Shown here piece by piece: positions 51,829 through 55,623 of a DNA stretch of 64,000 nt. Position numbers and translations under genes: made by a program. Each line of letters opens with the position of its first letter. The stretch's first letter is position 1. This DNA is from an uncultured Anaerolineales bacterium (GTDB lineage: Bacteria; Chloroflexota; Anaerolineae; B4-G1). Location: NCBI GenBank assembly GCA_964390305.1, contig CAYMHT010000002.1:27212-91211 (forward strand), read 5' to 3'. The notes below the pieces were generated by a model, which worked only from the letters and a program-made list of their open reading frames with translations, was not told the origin of the DNA and did not search any database.

Positions 51829-51857
51829 TTGACAAATTATCTACATTCGGGTACACT
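51829..51857 (+). promoter_or_regulatory. sigma70 promoter (TTGACA-17-TACACT) overlapped by three ~10/11-bp-spaced ACA direct repeats resembling a CarH-type operator
   Basis: TTGACA 51829-51834; TACACT 51852-51857; ACA at 51832, 51843, 51853, the first two preceded by T at -3 (nnnnTnnACAn-like). Confidence 0.45.
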
Positions 51858-51893
51858 CTAACTCGAAGCTCAACAGAGGAGCGGACTGACGCG

Positions 51894-53225
51894 ATGCCGA
51901 GAGAGACCTACCGGGAGCCAATCTTCAACCTGAAAGCCGTGGTGGAGGCAACAGGCGTCACGGCCGACGCCCTGCGCGCGTGGGAGCGCCGCTACGATCT
52001 CCCCCGGCCAGACCGCACCGAGGCCGGCCACCGCATCTACTCCCAGCGCGATATCGATACCGTCAGGTGGCTGGTCGCCCGGCAGGAAGAGGGGCTCAGG
52101 ATCGGCAGGGCCGTTGACCTGTGGCGCAGCCTGGAAGAACGAGGCCAGGATCCTCTTCGCAAGATGCCCCTCTCCTCACAACCTGCAGGCATGCCCACCG
52201 GGCAAGGGACCGCCGACCTGCGCGAAGAATGGGTGTCCGCTTGCCTCGCTTTCGATGATCGGCGAGCGGACCAGGCCCTCACCCGGGCCTTCGCCCTCTT
52301 CTCTCCAGAGCTGGTCGTCCTCGATATTGTACGGGAGGGAATCGCGGAGATTGGTCGGAGGTGGTACCAGGGCGAGGTTACGGTACAGCAGGAACACTTT
52401 GCGTCCCAGGTCGCCATGCGCCGTCTCAAAGCCCTGATGACCGGCGCGCCACCGCCCACCCGCCGAGGCCGCGTCGTGATCGCATGCTCACCACACGAGG
52501 AGCACGCCGTCGGCCCCTTCATCTTGGCGCTGCTGCTCCGCAGAGCGAGCTGGGACGTGGTCTACCTGGGCACCGACGTTCCGCTCGAGCGGATGGAACA
52601 GACGGTCGACGCTACGGGGCCCGACCTCGTTGTCCTCGCTGCACAGCAGCTCCACACGGCAGCTACGCTCCTCAGAATGGCCCAGCTCTTGCAGCGCAAG
52701 GCCGTCTGCGTCGGGTTCGGGGGCGGCATCTTCAACCGCATCCCCGACCTGCGAAAGCGCGTGCCCGGCCATTTCCTGGGCCCGACCCTGACGAAGGCGA
52801 TGGAACGGACCGAGCGCCTCATTGTGACCAGCCCCCAGCCTCCCGCCGCAGAGAGCCGGTCGCCCGCCTACGACGAGGCCCTCGCGCATTACTTGGATCA
52901 TCAGCTCGCCGTGGAGGCCCAGGTCTGCCAGTCCCTCGCGGTCGAAGGGCTGCCTCCCCAGACCATGCATCAGGTCGCCGACGCATTCTCTGGTGCTCTC
53001 CTGGCCGCCCTCCAGTTCGGCGAGATCGACCTGCTCGGTGACTACGTAGACTGGGTGGAACGCCGGGACGTCCAACAGCAGACTTCGGTGCAAGGGCTCC
53101 GCCAGGTGCTTGAGGCCTATCACGAGGCTGTAAGAGACCAGTTGGACGAGCGTGCCGCGCCCATTGCCAGCTGGCTCCGCGAGCGGCTCGGTCAGACAGC
53201 CCACAACCTGGGAGAAAGGGAATGA
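51894..53225 (+). CDS. CarH/LitR-type MerR-family transcription regulator with AdoB12-binding light-sensor module (Wx9EH helical bundle plus Rossmann B12 domain) and ~150-aa C-terminal extension
   Basis: MerR HTH (FNLKAVVEATGVTADALRAWERRYDLPRPDRTEAGHRIYS); exact Wx9EH motif (RRWYQGEVTVQQEHF); B12-binding (D/E)xHxxG (SPHEEHAVGPFILALLL...VVYLG); AGAGGAG RBS. Confidence 0.75.
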   Translation: MPRETYREPIFNLKAVVEATGVTADALRAWERRYDLPRPDRTEAGHRIYSQRDIDTVRWLVARQEEGLRIGRAVDLWRSLEERGQDPLRKMPLSSQPAGMPTGQGTADLREEWVSACLAFDDRRADQALTRAFALFSPELVVLDIVREGIAEIGRRWYQGEVTVQQEHFASQVAMRRLKALMTGAPPPTRRGRVVIACSPHEEHAVGPFILALLLRRASWDVVYLGTDVPLERMEQTVDATGPDLVVLAAQQLHTAATLLRMAQLLQRKAVCVGFGGGIFNRIPDLRKRVPGHFLGPTLTKAMERTERLIVTSPQPPAAESRSPAYDEALAHYLDHQLAVEAQVCQSLAVEGLPPQTMHQVADAFSGALLAALQFGEIDLLGDYVDWVERRDVQQQTSVQGLRQVLEAYHEAVRDQLDERAAPIASWLRERLGQTAHNLGERE

Positions 53226-53692
53226 GCCGTCTGCGACCGGAGAACCTTCATGTCACCCACTCCCCGCGCGTCAGCGCTGACGGTCCCATAACACCGCGCT
53301 TCTACACCCTCACCCACTCCGACCTCACCGGCGATCTCTTCCTCACCATCGACTCCGCCTACGACACCGAGCAGATCTCCGGCCTGTACACGCGCCTCAT
53401 GCGCGACGAGGTACTAGCCGAATGGAAGGACGAAGAGCCAGGCCCAGTTCTTCACGTCCACTGTCACGTCAGTGGCGGACTGGCCCTGGGCCCGGCGGGC
53501 ACGCGATTCGCAATCTTCAAGACGGAGTTGCCCCTGGTCTTGCAGGCGCTCCGCTATGGCGACAGAGGCCTGTTCGAGGCGCACCCGGCGCTCGACCAAG
53601 CAACCATAGAGGTACACTTCCACGCGACTCAGCCTCGCTACGACCGGGTCGAGCGCTGGGGCGTCCCTGGTGACCATCGACACGAGAGTTGA
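53222..53692 (+). CDS. Stay-Green (SGR) family protein, bacterial homolog of chlorophyll Mg-dechelatase
   Basis: Strong similarity across SGR core: RFYTLTHSDLTGDLFLTI, YTRLMRDEVLAEWKD, LHVHCHVSGG, RFAIFKTELPLVLQALRYGD, IEVHFHATQPRYDRVERWG; ATGA overlap with regulator stop. Confidence 0.75.
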   Translation: MSRLRPENLHVTHSPRVSADGPITPRFYTLTHSDLTGDLFLTIDSAYDTEQISGLYTRLMRDEVLAEWKDEEPGPVLHVHCHVSGGLALGPAGTRFAIFKTELPLVLQALRYGDRGLFEAHPALDQATIEVHFHATQPRYDRVERWGVPGDHRHES

Positions 53693-53723
53693 CCGTCATC
53701 TCTCCACCGTGTGCTGAGTGCCT

Positions 53724-54497
53724 ATGAAGTCGAGAGCAGAGAGAACCGTGCGCTATATCAAGCGATGGTGGTGGGTGCTGCTTCTTATCCCGCTCCTGGC
53801 GGCCGTCGGCTTCGTCGTCTGGGCCGAATCCACATCCAGCCCAATGCCCGGAGGGGAGGCCGCCTTGGAGGCACCCATGAGTGCCGACGACGTATTGGTG
53901 ACGAGGCACGATTGGCTCACATTCCGCCCCACAGCCCAGGAGCCCTCCACCGGCCTCGTCTTCTATCCCGGCGGGCGCGTCGATCCGCGCGCCTACGGCC
54001 CGCCTGCCCGCGCCATCGCTGGCCGGGGCTATCTCGTGGTCGTCGTGCCCATGCCGCTCAACCTTGCGGTCTTCGCGCCAGATCGCGCGGCCGCTGTGAT
54101 CGACTCGTTTCCACAAGTAACGCGGTGGGTCGTCGGAGGACACTCGTTGGGCGGAGCGATGGCGGCCCGTTTTGCTCACAGGCATCCGGGGACGGTGGAG
54201 GGGCTCCTGCTCTGGGCCTCCTACCCGGCACAGAGTGACGACCTCTCCGAGCAGGATCTTTCTGTCACCGCCGTATACGCCACCAACGACGGGCTGGCTA
54301 CCCCCGAGGAGATCGCTGCCTCGCGGCACCTCCTCCCTTCGGGGACCCAATGGATCGAGATTGAGGGCGGCAATCACGCACAATTCGGCTGGTACGGCTC
54401 GCAGGCCGGGGACGTGCCAGCCACGATCAGCCGCGAAGCACAGCAGCACCAGGTGACGGCTGCAACCCTGGCCCTGCTCCAAGAGGTGGAGAGATGA
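53724..54497 (+). CDS. membrane-anchored alpha/beta hydrolase (GHSLGG nucleophile elbow)
   Basis: N-terminal TM helix; alpha/beta-hydrolase motifs GHSLGG, catalytic Asp/His candidates; alternative GTG start at 53718. Confidence 0.7.
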   Translation: MKSRAERTVRYIKRWWWVLLLIPLLAAVGFVVWAESTSSPMPGGEAALEAPMSADDVLVTRHDWLTFRPTAQEPSTGLVFYPGGRVDPRAYGPPARAIAGRGYLVVVVPMPLNLAVFAPDRAAAVIDSFPQVTRWVVGGHSLGGAMAARFAHRHPGTVEGLLLWASYPAQSDDLSEQDLSVTAVYATNDGLATPEEIAASRHLLPSGTQWIEIEGGNHAQFGWYGSQAGDVPATISREAQQHQVTAATLALLQEVER

Positions 54498-54651
54498 GAC
54501 GCGGAGCCGAGGCCGGCCACCAGCGCGATACGTCCGGGGTTCACCAGCCGGGCGGCATCCCTGCTCGTCACGAAGAGGCCTGGGAATCCAGAGGGGCCGG
54601 GCCACGTCAACCGACGACGTCCCGGGGCAGAGAGCGCGGCAGGAGCGAGAG

Positions 54652-55623
54652 GTGCCCGTGAGAGAGCGACGGCGCGCGGTCTTAATCTTGGTTGCACTTC
54701 TCTTGGGCGCCCTCCTGATCGGACCCTTCTTGGTTCCGGTCCCACCCATTGAGAATACGGTCCCACCCGAGCAGCTGGCCGACCGCGACAGCCGATTCGT
54801 CGAGGTGAACGGTCTCCAGGTGCACTACAAGGCAGCGGGTGCGGGGGATCCAACCTTCATCCTTCTCCACGGCTTCGGCGCCAGCGTCTTCTCCTGGCGC
54901 GAGGTGATGGATCCATTGAGTGAGCTGGGCAGTGTGATTGCCTTCGACCGACCTGCCTTTGGCCTCACCGAGCGCCCTATGGCTTGGGATGAAGGCGCCC
55001 ATCCGTACGCACCGGAGGCCCAGGTGGCCTTGGTCGTGGGGCTGATGGACACGTTGGACATCGATGAAGCCATTCTTGTCGGCAACTCCGCCGGTGGCAC
55101 GGTCGCCGTCCAGGCCGCCCTCGCACATTTTGAACGGGTGAAGGCGCTCATCCTCGTCGACGCAGCCATCTACGAGGGAGGAGGCGCGCCCAACTGGATC
55201 CGGCCGCTCCTCAGCACCCCCCAGCTGGACCACCTCGGCCCACTTCTCGCCCGGCAGATCTCGCAGCGGGGCGACGCTTTTCTCGAGAGCGCGTGGCACG
55301 AGCCGGCGAAGATCACGCCCCAGATCCGTGCAAGCTACCGAAAGCCGCTCCGGGCAGAGAACTGGGATCGCGCACTATGGGAACTCACGAAGGCCTCACA
55401 ACGGCGGGACTTGACCAGCCGGATCCCACAGCTGACCGTACCTTCGCTGGTCATCAGCGGCGATGACGACCGTATCGTCCCCGTCGAGTCCAGCATCCAG
55501 CTGGCGGAGCAGCTCCCCAACGCCGATCTGGTCGTGATTCCACAGTGCGGTCACGTACCGCACGAGGAATGTCCTGGACCGTTTCTGGAAGCAGTCACTG
55601 GTTTCGTGGAGGGCCTACCCTGA
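54652..55623 (+). CDS. alpha/beta-fold hydrolase (GNSAGG nucleophile elbow), N-terminal TM anchor
   Basis: HGFGASVFSWREV (oxyanion HG), GNSAGG, C-terminal catalytic His (CGHVPHEE). Confidence 0.8.
   Translation: MPVRERRRAVLILVALLLGALLIGPFLVPVPPIENTVPPEQLADRDSRFVEVNGLQVHYKAAGAGDPTFILLHGFGASVFSWREVMDPLSELGSVIAFDRPAFGLTERPMAWDEGAHPYAPEAQVALVVGLMDTLDIDEAILVGNSAGGTVAVQAALAHFERVKALILVDAAIYEGGGAPNWIRPLLSTPQLDHLGPLLARQISQRGDAFLESAWHEPAKITPQIRASYRKPLRAENWDRALWELTKASQRRDLTSRIPQLTVPSLVISGDDDRIVPVESSIQLAEQLPNADLVVIPQCGHVPHEECPGPFLEAVTGFVEGLP

Follow-up and report, generated by a model that had tools for sequence, protein, structure and literature searches.

In a 64,000-nucleotide stretch of contig CAYMHT010000002.1 (assembly GCA_964390305.1, positions 27,212 to 91,211 of the forward strand) from an uncultured Anaerolineales bacterium, hereafter the window, the gene for a MerR-type regulator bearing the signature motifs of B12 photoreceptors (REG) is followed on the plus strand by the genes for a homologue of the Staygreen Mg-dechelatase (SGR) and for two α/β hydrolases (HYD1 and HYD2). 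We found that the operator-promoter upstream of REG recurs at the head of Staygreen operons in at least 12 other loci. Since it does so even where the regulator gene is elsewhere, it offers regulon-level evidence, of a sequence kind, that Staygreen operons are under B12-photoreceptor control; with the light-stress genes that recur around them, it indicates that Staygreen probably belongs to the core of a light-stress regulon under a B12 photoreceptor. The type of switch (that of CarH) and the photoreceptor module (that of the photocobilins) are known already, and what is new is the combination of a DNA-binding photocobilin, an operator and a cargo of Staygreen and esterases.

The four genes lie within 51894-55623 (Table 1), and Pfam confirmed both the positions and the domain identities given for them in a first-pass annotation made from the sequence alone. 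The ATGA overlap of REG and SGR reported there is present at 53222-53225, the TGA of REG being shared with the ATG of SGR, and a GGGAG Shine-Dalgarno sequence stands just 5′ of SGR. When 51500-57200 was scanned, the promoter upstream of REG was the only plus-strand sigma-70-like match, with none predicted 3′ of 51857. Terminator prediction gave a single plus-strand match, at 54676-54695 within HYD2, and nothing 3′ of HYD2. Given the ATGA overlap, the short gaps, the single promoter and the lack of a predicted plus-strand terminator between the genes, REG-SGR-HYD1-HYD2 is most simply one transcription unit, and its co-transcription is likely. The unit may run on through the next two genes, which encode a pterin-4a-carbinolamine dehydratase (PCD) and a DegV protein.

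REG had been called a CarH-type photoreceptor at first pass, and this stood in part. Pfam finds MerR_1 (residues 12-76), B12-binding_2 (110-181) and B12-binding (192-291) in REG, and the best match among solved structures by sequence is Thermus thermophilus CarH (TtCarH; 5C8D, E 8e-26). Two signature motifs define CarH homologues (PMC8156234); both Wx9EH and ExHxxG were found in REG as claimed and align with TtCarH. An alignment of 42 REG homologues shows no variation at W157, E167, H168, E202 or H204, the last being the predicted lower axial cobalt ligand. REG thus has in common with the CarH/LitR proteins (T. thermophilus CarH, 5C8D/5C8E; Myxococcus xanthus CarH; Bacillus megaterium CarH) the MerR winged helix-turn-helix, the four-helix bundle with Wx9EH and the Rossmann fold with ExHxxG. 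Unlike them, it is about 140 residues longer and carries a conserved C-terminal helical domain of some 120-140 aa, and its score against the NCBIfam CarH equivalog (TransRegCarH) is 135 bits versus a cutoff of 400, with residues 10-263 alone matching. A homologue search with REG gave 1333 matches at E<=1e-10, of which the 120 listed are 432-465 aa long.

By sequence, the C-terminal tail alone gave no Pfam match and a mere chance match in a phmmer search of the PDB, while tail and Rossmann fold together matched a photocobilin at only E 0.03. An AlphaFold2 model of REG was therefore compared at the level of fold; it was built on 42 homologues (pLDDT 87.6) and has five extra helices after the Rossmann fold (324-350, 355-375, 380-391, 396-416 and 419-442). 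Foldseek ranked the photocobilins 8J2W, 8J2X and 8J2Y best (E 6e-16 to 1e-14, 330-350 columns), with TM-scores, normalised to the length of the target structure, of 0.76-0.84; full-length CarH structures, including TtCarH, ranked below them at 0.54-0.64. In the model, this whole-module match takes in the photocobilin globin domain. Photocobilins consist of a CarH-like B12 module and a globin-like photoglobin domain, which binds biliverdin alongside the corrin and carries light sensitivity into the red (PMC10979010). Given the five extra helices, the photocobilins as best model match and a score far below the equivalog cutoff, the modelled REG appears to be a MerR-photocobilin-type protein with B12 and photoglobin-like domains, rather than a canonical two-domain CarH.

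The resemblance to SasPcob (8J2W/8J2X) and AbPcob (8J2Y; Zhang et al. 2024, PMC10979010) covers the order of the B12 module and the five-helix globin-like domain, and extends to W387 of REG. This residue is nearly invariant in the family and, in a HMMER alignment with the offset deduced from His108, falls on SasPcob Trp296, a contact of corrin and bilin ring D. Opposite the bilin-binding Asp270 of SasPcob, a low-confidence alignment puts a non-acidic residue (about Q360), with D363 three residues on; AbPcob, which has His at the Asp270 position, binds biliverdin poorly (PMC10979010). Unlike REG, the characterised photocobilins stand alone or are fused to a diguanylate cyclase and do not bind DNA (PMC10979010). 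Schneider et al. 2022 (PMC8717448) include fusions of MerR helix-turn-helix, B12 and photoglobin domains among the architectures they predict, and in the literature we found neither a characterised example nor assigned target genes.

The promoter proposed at first pass, TTGACA and TACACT separated by 17 nt, was found upstream of REG, and its -35, its spacing and a TAnnnT -10 are kept in relatives. Three ACA repeats (51832, 51843 and 51853) had been proposed along with it. All three are literally there and the first two are conserved, but the third (51853-51855) falls in the -10 and is not kept in L002, L003, L087 and L106 (L numbers denote loci from other genomes); it was replaced by an upstream repeat, DR0. 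The resulting candidate operator consists of three tandem 11-bp direct repeats over the -35 (DR0, DR1 and DR2; Table 1). An upstream block, CAATTCCTTGACAAnTTATnnACAnnnnGGTAnnnT, is common to the window and to L001, L002 and L003, where the regulators are only 51-66% identical; these four loci were picked through Staygreen homology and not by operator pattern. Set in 11-bp register, 16 sites from different loci each line up as three such repeats, with T at position 5, (A/C)CAA at positions 8-11 and a -10 downstream of them.

In CarH operators, direct repeats of 11 bp stand in tandem and follow the consensus nAnnTnnACAn; there are three in Thermus and four in B. megaterium (PMC8156234). T5 and ACA8-10 of the candidate operator agree with this consensus, while position 2 is usually T, not A. 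We regard the operator as CarH-like and as a candidate for REG binding. Its 17-nt spacer argues for repression by occlusion and against activation of the MerR type. Activators of the latter kind classically act at overlong spacers of 19-20 bp. Like CarH/LitR systems, the REG system would combine tandem 11-bp repeats over the -35 with autoregulation and control of photoprotection genes; unlike theirs, its cargo includes a Staygreen Mg-dechelatase and esterases and, in the window, does not consist of carotenoid genes. A second copy of the operator (e.g. before DegV or DUF1475/DUF523) was not found in the 64-kb window, where the site is unique.

Across the loci scanned, the pattern GACAA..TAT..ACA has 6 matches in 83 loci, versus 0.4 expected from shuffles, and all 6 are on the Staygreen strand, just 5′ of REG (3), of a heliorhodopsin-SGR pair (1) or of SGR itself (2). 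The two-repeat pattern T..ACAA....T..ACA has 21 matches in 0.89 Mb, versus 3.3 expected and a shuffle maximum of 6, and nearly all of these sites are followed by a -10 at the right distance. Two-repeat sites head SGR-containing operons in the window and in L001-L003, L019-L021, L028, L043, L054, L070 and L111-L113. REG is the first gene of these operons in the window, L001-L003, L111 and L112. In other loci the operon so headed runs DegV-HeR-REG-DUF1475-SGR (L019; HeR, heliorhodopsin), HeR-SGR-DegV-DUF1295-REG (L020), FtsX/ABC-SGR-REG-TspO-like (L021), peroxiredoxin-SGR (L028), MFS-HeR-SGR (L054) or SulP-carbonic anhydrase-AhpC-DegV-SGR (L113), and in L043 and L070 SGR comes first with no regulator within 6 kb. 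Sites also stand before a CrtI-like gene (L032) and a type-1 rhodopsin gene (L112), and in L085 the site region, with three perfect repeats, lies between divergent genes for a short CarH and for a DegV-DUF1295-REG operon. In a metagenome-wide scan for the exact operator, 4 of 24 matches lay 5′ of REG orthologues, one of them (L103) divergent from SDR and CrtI genes; the other 20, mostly in AT-rich contigs, were set aside as chance matches. Furthermore, REG homologues chosen without reference to SGR adjoin carotenoid-type genes, photolyase, DUF1295 and TspO-like genes.

Two of these loci carry further features of their own. L084 and L085 come from a 4.87-Mb Anaerolineae chromosome (CP070818.1), a metagenome-assembled genome (MAG), with two long photoglobin-bearing regulators (436 and 440 aa) and a short CarH-type protein of 327 aa. 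The operon divergent from short CarH in L085 reads DegV-DUF3159-DUF1295-REG in full, with a two-repeat site on the strand opposite to the three perfect 11-bp repeats. The rhodopsin gene of L112 (12410-13006, minus strand; PF01036, 198 aa) is a short one in the SGR neighbourhood, with its two-repeat operator-promoter at about 13155.

The gene neighbourhoods of Staygreen were examined in other genomes by a profile scan with a Staygreen alignment, which gave 420 relatives. We retained 80 loci, which belong to Anaerolineae, Dehalococcoidia, other Chloroflexota and Bathyarchaeia and of which many lie on short contigs; neighbours within about 6 kb were counted by family-wise tblastn, and their identities were checked with Pfam. 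The most frequent neighbours are an MFS transporter of the Tet-like efflux type (19/80 loci), heliorhodopsin (17/80), an orthologue of HYD1 or HYD2 (17/80), DUF1475 (12/80), AhpC/TSA peroxiredoxin (11/80) and a CrtI-like desaturase (10/80). REG, DUF1295 and DUF523/DUF1722 are each found at 9/80 loci, photolyase and DegV each at 8/80, UvdE at 6/80, and MsrB and a TspO/MBR-like protein each at 4/80. The synteny of Staygreen with regulator (9/80) and hydrolase family (17/80) is thus conserved in relatives, and at least one of heliorhodopsin, REG, photolyase, UvdE and CrtI lies within 6 kb at 37/80 loci. By a rough estimate, a random 12-kb stretch would hold a given one of these genes well under 1% of the time, since each is roughly single-copy in a genome of several megabases. 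Gene orders vary (REG-SGR, REG-MFS-SGR, SGR-REG, HeR-REG-DUF1475-SGR), and because they differ so widely between loci, the association points to selection rather than simple inheritance.

L111 and L112, the nearest relatives on long contigs, have a fuller operon: REG, a Rieske/VanA_C monooxygenase, MFS, SGR, HYD1, HYD2, an ABC ATPase and a MacB-type permease, with PCD and then DegV further on. The monooxygenase and the Tet-like MFS lie between REG and Staygreen (L111:4740-6989, L112:4517-6990), as they do in L086:11781-14010, and in L002, L003, L111 and L112 PCD and DegV come after the Staygreen operon as a pair. The window operon is a reduced form of this arrangement, without the oxygenase and the exporters. 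The oxygenase was considered as a homologue of PAO, the Rieske oxygenase of plant chlorophyll breakdown, a reading that we do not claim and keep as a lead: its best solved relatives are the demethylases/hydroxylases NdmA, DdmC and SxtT, and NCBIfam gives a weak similarity to SdmA.

Heliorhodopsin (PF18761; 343 bits for the member in L054) lies directly 5′ of Staygreen on the same strand at 10 loci, with gaps of 15-85 nt (L006, L016, L020, L022, L033, L034, L040, L041, L047 and L054), and within 6 kb of it also at L013, L019, L044, L056, L063, L073 and L078. The loci so linked include Dehalococcoidia and a Bathyarchaeota MAG. This resembles the known modules in which heliorhodopsin is paired with photolyase, glutamine synthetase or an ABC transporter, the partner here being the enzyme gene SGR directly downstream at operon-like spacing. 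MerR regulators and α/β hydrolases are already among the frequent heliorhodopsin neighbours; Staygreen, in contrast, is absent from the ten published neighbour groups (PMC9769723, PMC11109279), and the window itself holds no heliorhodopsin. At five loci a TspO/MBR-related membrane protein of 260-300 aa stands beside Staygreen or directly after the regulator (L021:7795-8595, L027:2-925, L044:5143-6054, L061:5065-5862 and L086:9326-10111), and two members exceed the Pfam cutoff (30.6 and 28.4 bits versus 24). TspO proteins bind tetrapyrroles.

The identity of SGR is borne out by its match to the Staygreen profile PF12638 (159.7 bits versus a cutoff of 27, residues 4-150 of 156). It aligns colinearly and without gaps with AbSGR-h of Anaerolineae SM23_63 (PDB 7Y5Y), a protein of the same length, at 56.8% identity (E 5e-52). 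In AbSGR-h, D34 and D62 are essential for catalysis, mutation of H32 weakens activity, and R26, Y28, T29 and D114 are structural; mutating these residues abolishes or weakens activity or solubility (PMC8531759). All seven are identical at the same positions in SGR, and all are invariant or nearly so among 21 Staygreen homologues. AbSGR-h dechelates chlorophyll a, chlorophyllide a, protochlorophyllide and chlorophylls b and c in vitro, with low substrate specificity (Obata 2019; Dey 2021/2022). Staygreen homologues of bacteria and archaea act as Mg-dechelatases in vitro, and the plant enzyme is believed to derive from them; the physiological relevance of the bacterial ones is stated to be unknown (PMC8531759), and the AbSGR-h literature gives no genomic or regulatory context of the kind found for SGR here. 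From its identity to this assayed enzyme, we infer that SGR removes Mg from chlorophyll-type pigments. Neither REG nor SGR has an N-terminal hydrophobic segment by hydropathy, and SGR is taken to be cytoplasmic.

Pfam and hydropathy agree with the first-pass description of HYD1 and HYD2 as two α/β hydrolases with GHSLGG and GNSAGG nucleophile elbows and N-terminal hydrophobic anchors. Both are full-length matches with a GxSxG elbow, a generic feature of such enzymes. HYD1 (Abhydrolase_5, 199 bits; GHSLGG) has a hydrophobic signal or anchor segment at residues 14-38, and its start is placed at ATG by gene callers in other genomes. Its closest solved structure is the fold-5 esterase AroC (9EH6, E 5e-80), and at the corresponding position it carries GWYGSQAGDVPATIS, near-identical to the active-site lid loop G208WYGEQPGDNPATIS222 of AroC. 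AroC hydrolyses p-nitrophenyl butyrate and a trimer mimic of polyethylene terephthalate (PET); the work on it concerned promiscuous PETase or esterase activity alone and did not address what it acts on in nature or its genomic context (PMC12177695). HYD2 (Abhydrolase_1, 109.7 bits; Abhydrolase_6, 90.6 bits; GNSAGG) has a membrane anchor with a maximum 19-residue hydropathy of 2.95 at residues 10-28. The AcoC, PcaD, BchO and HsaD models of NCBIfam match it about equally and all below cutoff, and its best PDB matches are meta-cleavage-product hydrolases and esterases. A BchO-like assignment was dropped as unspecific, since its 97 bits fall short of the 172.55 cutoff and do not surpass PcaD or AcoC. 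Because a strongly hydrophobic segment follows the basic N-terminus, the catalytic domains of HYD1 and HYD2 are probably on the outer face of the membrane. No chlorophyllase-family Pfam match was found in either at E<=0.01. The analogy to pheophytinase drawn at first pass goes back to the generic GxSxGG elbow and gained no support from these searches. The label "catabolic" gained none either: the window has no ring-opening enzyme, and the relatives point to efflux instead of catabolism.

These observations fit a light-derepressed, autoregulated operon that handles chlorophyll-type pigments as photosensitisers, a reading to which we give about an even chance of being right. In the dark, AdoCbl (adenosylcobalamin)-loaded REG would oligomerise, bind the three 11-bp repeats covering the -35 and block RNA polymerase; light would photolyse AdoCbl, the oligomer would fall apart, and the DNA would be released. 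The trigger would be UV to green light via AdoCbl, and red light too if the globin domain binds a bilin as in photocobilins. REG-SGR-HYD1-HYD2 would then be transcribed, possibly through PCD and DegV. Cytoplasmic SGR would strip Mg2+ from chlorophylls, chlorophyllides and protochlorophyllide acquired from neighbouring or decaying phototrophs, and HYD1 and HYD2, as membrane-anchored serine esterases, would take off phytyl and/or methyl ester side chains, leaving the pigment more polar. In relatives, the operon also encodes a Rieske monooxygenase, an MFS efflux pump of the Tet-like kind and an ABC exporter of the MacB type, and these additions suggest a strategy of modifying and expelling the photosensitiser when light makes the pigment dangerous. 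The wider B12-photoreceptor regulon would include carotenoid desaturase, photolyase, UvdE, peroxiredoxin, MsrB, DUF1295, DUF523/DUF1722 and rhodopsins. Such co-regulation with defences against singlet oxygen and UV would give the handling of pigments a rationale, as they are harmless in the dark and dangerous in the light.

The regulator, light-release and regulon steps, and with them light induction, are inferred from motifs, fold and operator conservation, and the hydrolase step is the weakest of the mechanism. Several points weigh against this reading. Mg removal alone leaves phototoxicity, since pheophytin and pheophorbide are still phototoxic (bioRxiv 10.64898/2026.03.19.712979), and with both exporters missing and no ring-opening oxygenase in the window, its reduced operon would be an incomplete route of detoxification. 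Searches of Pfam, NCBIfam and the PDB gave no specific similarity of the hydrolases to pheophytinase or chlorophyllase, and the esterases probably work on the other side of the membrane from SGR, which clouds the order and place of the steps. On the side of the switch, DR0 is degenerate in the window, the CarH equivalog score of REG is low, and SasPcob is a dimer in the dark, not a tetramer (PMC10979010). Finally, the neighbourhood counts come from related MAGs that are not phylogenetically independent, and the enrichment is set against a background that is itself a rough estimate. Chlorophyll-type pigment detoxification and export nevertheless appears to be the best mechanism for the locus.

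The same light control could serve another substrate: SGR might act on an endogenous or different metallo-tetrapyrrole, or supply and recycle ligands for nearby light sensors and tetrapyrrole binders (the photoglobin domain, the TspO-like protein, a heliorhodopsin partner), its in vitro activity on chlorophyll being promiscuous. We consider this unlikely, though a possibility to be taken seriously. Obata et al. 2019 call the bacterial activity "promiscuous" in their title, the substrate specificity of AbSGR-h is low, and PMC8531759 describes the physiological role as unknown. Tetrapyrrole-binding modules recur near SGR, in the form of the photoglobin-like domain of REG and the TspO/MBR-like proteins of L021, L027, L044, L061 and L086, and SGR is also found in MAGs of Bathyarchaeia and Dehalococcoidia, for which contact with chlorophyll is less evident. 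However, no other substrate is known, SGR keeps every residue tested in the chlorophyll-active enzyme, and neither heme oxygenase nor bilin reductase was seen in the neighbourhoods; the neighbouring efflux pumps and esterases suit the handling of xenobiotic pigments better than cofactor supply. Those same partners, along with photo-oxidative repair genes, speak against nutrient scavenging, in which the chlorophyll of phototroph necromass would be degraded for phytol, carbon or Mg and light would be the cue for nearby phototrophs. Catabolic or uptake genes are not among the conserved partners, no phytol or β-oxidation genes are linked, and SGR has promoters in common with photolyase, CrtI and peroxiredoxin. 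Scavenging is therefore improbable, even though SGR and possibly phytol-releasing esterases match the first steps of plant chlorophyll breakdown, exported or membrane-anchored esterases are what external substrates would call for, and Anaerolineae are typical degraders in mats and sediments.

The remaining alternatives concern the switch itself. REG might not be a light sensor but report B12 availability, redox state or a tetrapyrrole bound by the globin domain, with SGR following that signal. Its extra C-terminal domain departs from CarH, its score is far below the equivalog cutoff, and the Gly of the GxxH signature (SignatureFinder) is replaced in REG (HEEH). Against these stand the invariance of Wx9EH and of the His ligand, which are tied to AdoCbl photochemistry, the light responsiveness of the characterised photocobilins (PMC10979010) and a regulon made up overwhelmingly of light-damage genes (photolyase, UvdE, CrtI, rhodopsins); we judge this alternative slightly less probable again than scavenging. 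That SGR and the hydrolases merely sit beside a light regulator, with no functional link, is already disfavoured and highly improbable: while REG is near SGR in only 9/80 loci and the loci are related MAGs, the REG stop and SGR start codons overlap, the link is kept across differing gene orders, and the operator lies directly 5′ of SGR where REG is not nearby (L043, L070 and L113).

Comparison with the plant PAO/phyllobilin pathway (SGR, the pheophytinase PPH, the Rieske oxygenase PAO, and RCCR) shows both likeness and difference. In the window, as in the plant route, Staygreen is coupled, here physically, to serine α/β hydrolases; in L111, L112 and L086 a Rieske non-heme-iron monooxygenase belongs to the same operon; and the rationale, avoiding a phototoxic pigment, would be the same. 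Unlike the plant enzymes, the hydrolases lack similarity specific to PPH or chlorophyllase and the Rieske protein resembles the demethylases NdmA, DdmC and VanA and is not demonstrably a PAO. There is no RCCR, efflux pumps take the place of vacuolar export, and a photoreceptor that of senescence signals.

Table 1. Features of the REG-SGR-HYD1-HYD2 locus and of the genes downstream, in window coordinates.
Feature	Coordinates	Strand	Description and evidence
Candidate operator	51814-51846	+	three tandem 11-bp direct repeats (nnnnTnnACAA) over the -35
DR0	51814-51824	+	ATGTTCCCCAA; degenerate (CCAA instead of ACAA)
DR1	51825-51835	+	TTCCTTGACAA; contains the -35
DR2	51836-51846	+	ATTATCTACAT; in the promoter spacer
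Promoter, sigma-70 type	51829-51857	+	TTGACA (51829-51834), 17-nt spacer, TACACT (51852-51857); 10/12 consensus matches
REG	51894-53225	+	443 aa; MerR winged helix-turn-helix, CarH-like AdoCbl-binding module, C-terminal photoglobin-like domain
MerR-type helix-turn-helix DNA-binding domain (REG aa 12-76)	51927-52121	+	Pfam MerR_1 46.3 bits, MerR 35.2 bits; aligns with the TtCarH DNA-binding domain
Wx9EH motif, W157/E167-H168 (four-helix bundle capping the adenosyl group)	52362-52397	+	aligns with TtCarH W131/E141/H142
ExHxxG motif, E202-E-H204-A-V-G207	52497-52514	+	aligns with the His-ligand motif of TtCarH and with SasPcob His108
C-terminal five-helix photoglobin-like domain (REG about aa 324-442)	52863-53219	+	AlphaFold2 model, Foldseek
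SGR, Staygreen family Mg-dechelatase homologue	53222-53692	+	156 aa; Pfam PF12638
HYD1, α/β-hydrolase fold-5 esterase	start GTG 53718 or ATG 53724, end 54497	+	Pfam Abhydrolase_5
HYD2, α/β hydrolase of MhpC/PcaD-like class	54652-55623	+	Pfam Abhydrolase_1/6
PCD, pterin-4a-carbinolamine dehydratase	55781-56128	+	Pfam, NCBIfam
DegV fatty-acid-binding protein	56162-57004	+	Pfam, NCBIfam
DUF1475 membrane protein	59018-59392	+	Pfam
DUF523/DUF1722 (YbgA-like) protein	59385-60371	+	Pfam

Within the locus, the 154-nt gap between HYD1 and HYD2 (54498-54651) is GC-rich, with neither promoter nor terminator predicted; in L003 the two genes overlap. An antisense open reading frame of 410 aa (53517-54749) looks like a GC-rich artefact and was treated as spurious. 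Downstream of DegV, the window encodes a small Rieske [2Fe-2S] protein of 160 aa (57402-57884), and small Rieske proteins are also found immediately 5′ of Staygreen in L006, L073, L076 and L079. When 50000-57000 of the window is compared with L001 (JAWLCP010000043.1), the identity of the proteins is a mosaic: HYD2 is 99% identical and the start of DegV 97%, versus 72% for SGR, 71% for PGI and 66% for REG, and the pterin dehydratase gene is missing from L001. This suggests recent recombination or transfer of a HYD2-DegV segment, or a chimeric MAG contig.

Elsewhere in the window, photosynthesis genes were sought, and the open reading frames annotated there are housekeeping genes. The families of the light cluster have no copies in the window beyond the genes of Table 1 at and downstream of the operon. 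On the minus strand, a 743-aa open reading frame (31536-33767) has no Pfam match at E<=1e-5; near it are the genes for a 1495-aa S8 subtilase with DUF11 repeats (38010-42497) and for the cytochrome c maturation protein CcmF (ccmF, 28560-30626), both also on the minus strand.

The first-pass statement that control of SGR by a B12 photoreceptor had not been described agrees with our literature searches, which found no earlier description. Full-text searches found no paper that has CarH or LitR together with Staygreen or Mg-dechelatase, nor one that has heliorhodopsin together with Staygreen, and a literature search on CarH/LitR regulons in Chloroflexi found nothing relevant. CarH, B12 and operons go unmentioned in a 2026 preprint on chlorophyll degradation by prokaryotes (bioRxiv 10.64898/2026.03.19.712979). 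The locus provides the first candidate targets, operator and regulon for MerR-type photocobilins. It also makes Staygreen a candidate partner of heliorhodopsin, a family whose functions are still being worked out. The short promoter-operator and a possibly red-responsive B12 repressor are, in addition, a candidate optogenetic switch.

A broader proposal, which we put forward only tentatively and consider rather doubtful as a whole, is that prokaryotes have a light-gated disposal pathway for chlorophyll-type pigments under two photoreceptors, plausibly the ancestor of the plant SGR/PPH/PAO route. Its steps would be a Staygreen dechelatase, esterases, a Rieske oxygenase in some lineages, and efflux pumps. 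The dual-tetrapyrrole (B12 and bilin-type) MerR repressor would be the photoreceptor that controls transcription; the heliorhodopsin encoded directly 5′ of Staygreen in many genomes would be the second one and may act at the protein level. If true, this would give physiological roles to three orphans: bacterial Staygreen, the MerR-photocobilins and a subset of heliorhodopsins. The placement of Staygreen in a B12-photoreceptor regulon is the first testable clue to the role of the bacterial protein, namely protection from light-activated pigments. The host, a member of the Anaerolineae, is described as non-photosynthetic, and in the role proposed non-phototrophs living among phototrophs would deal with phototoxic tetrapyrroles under illumination.

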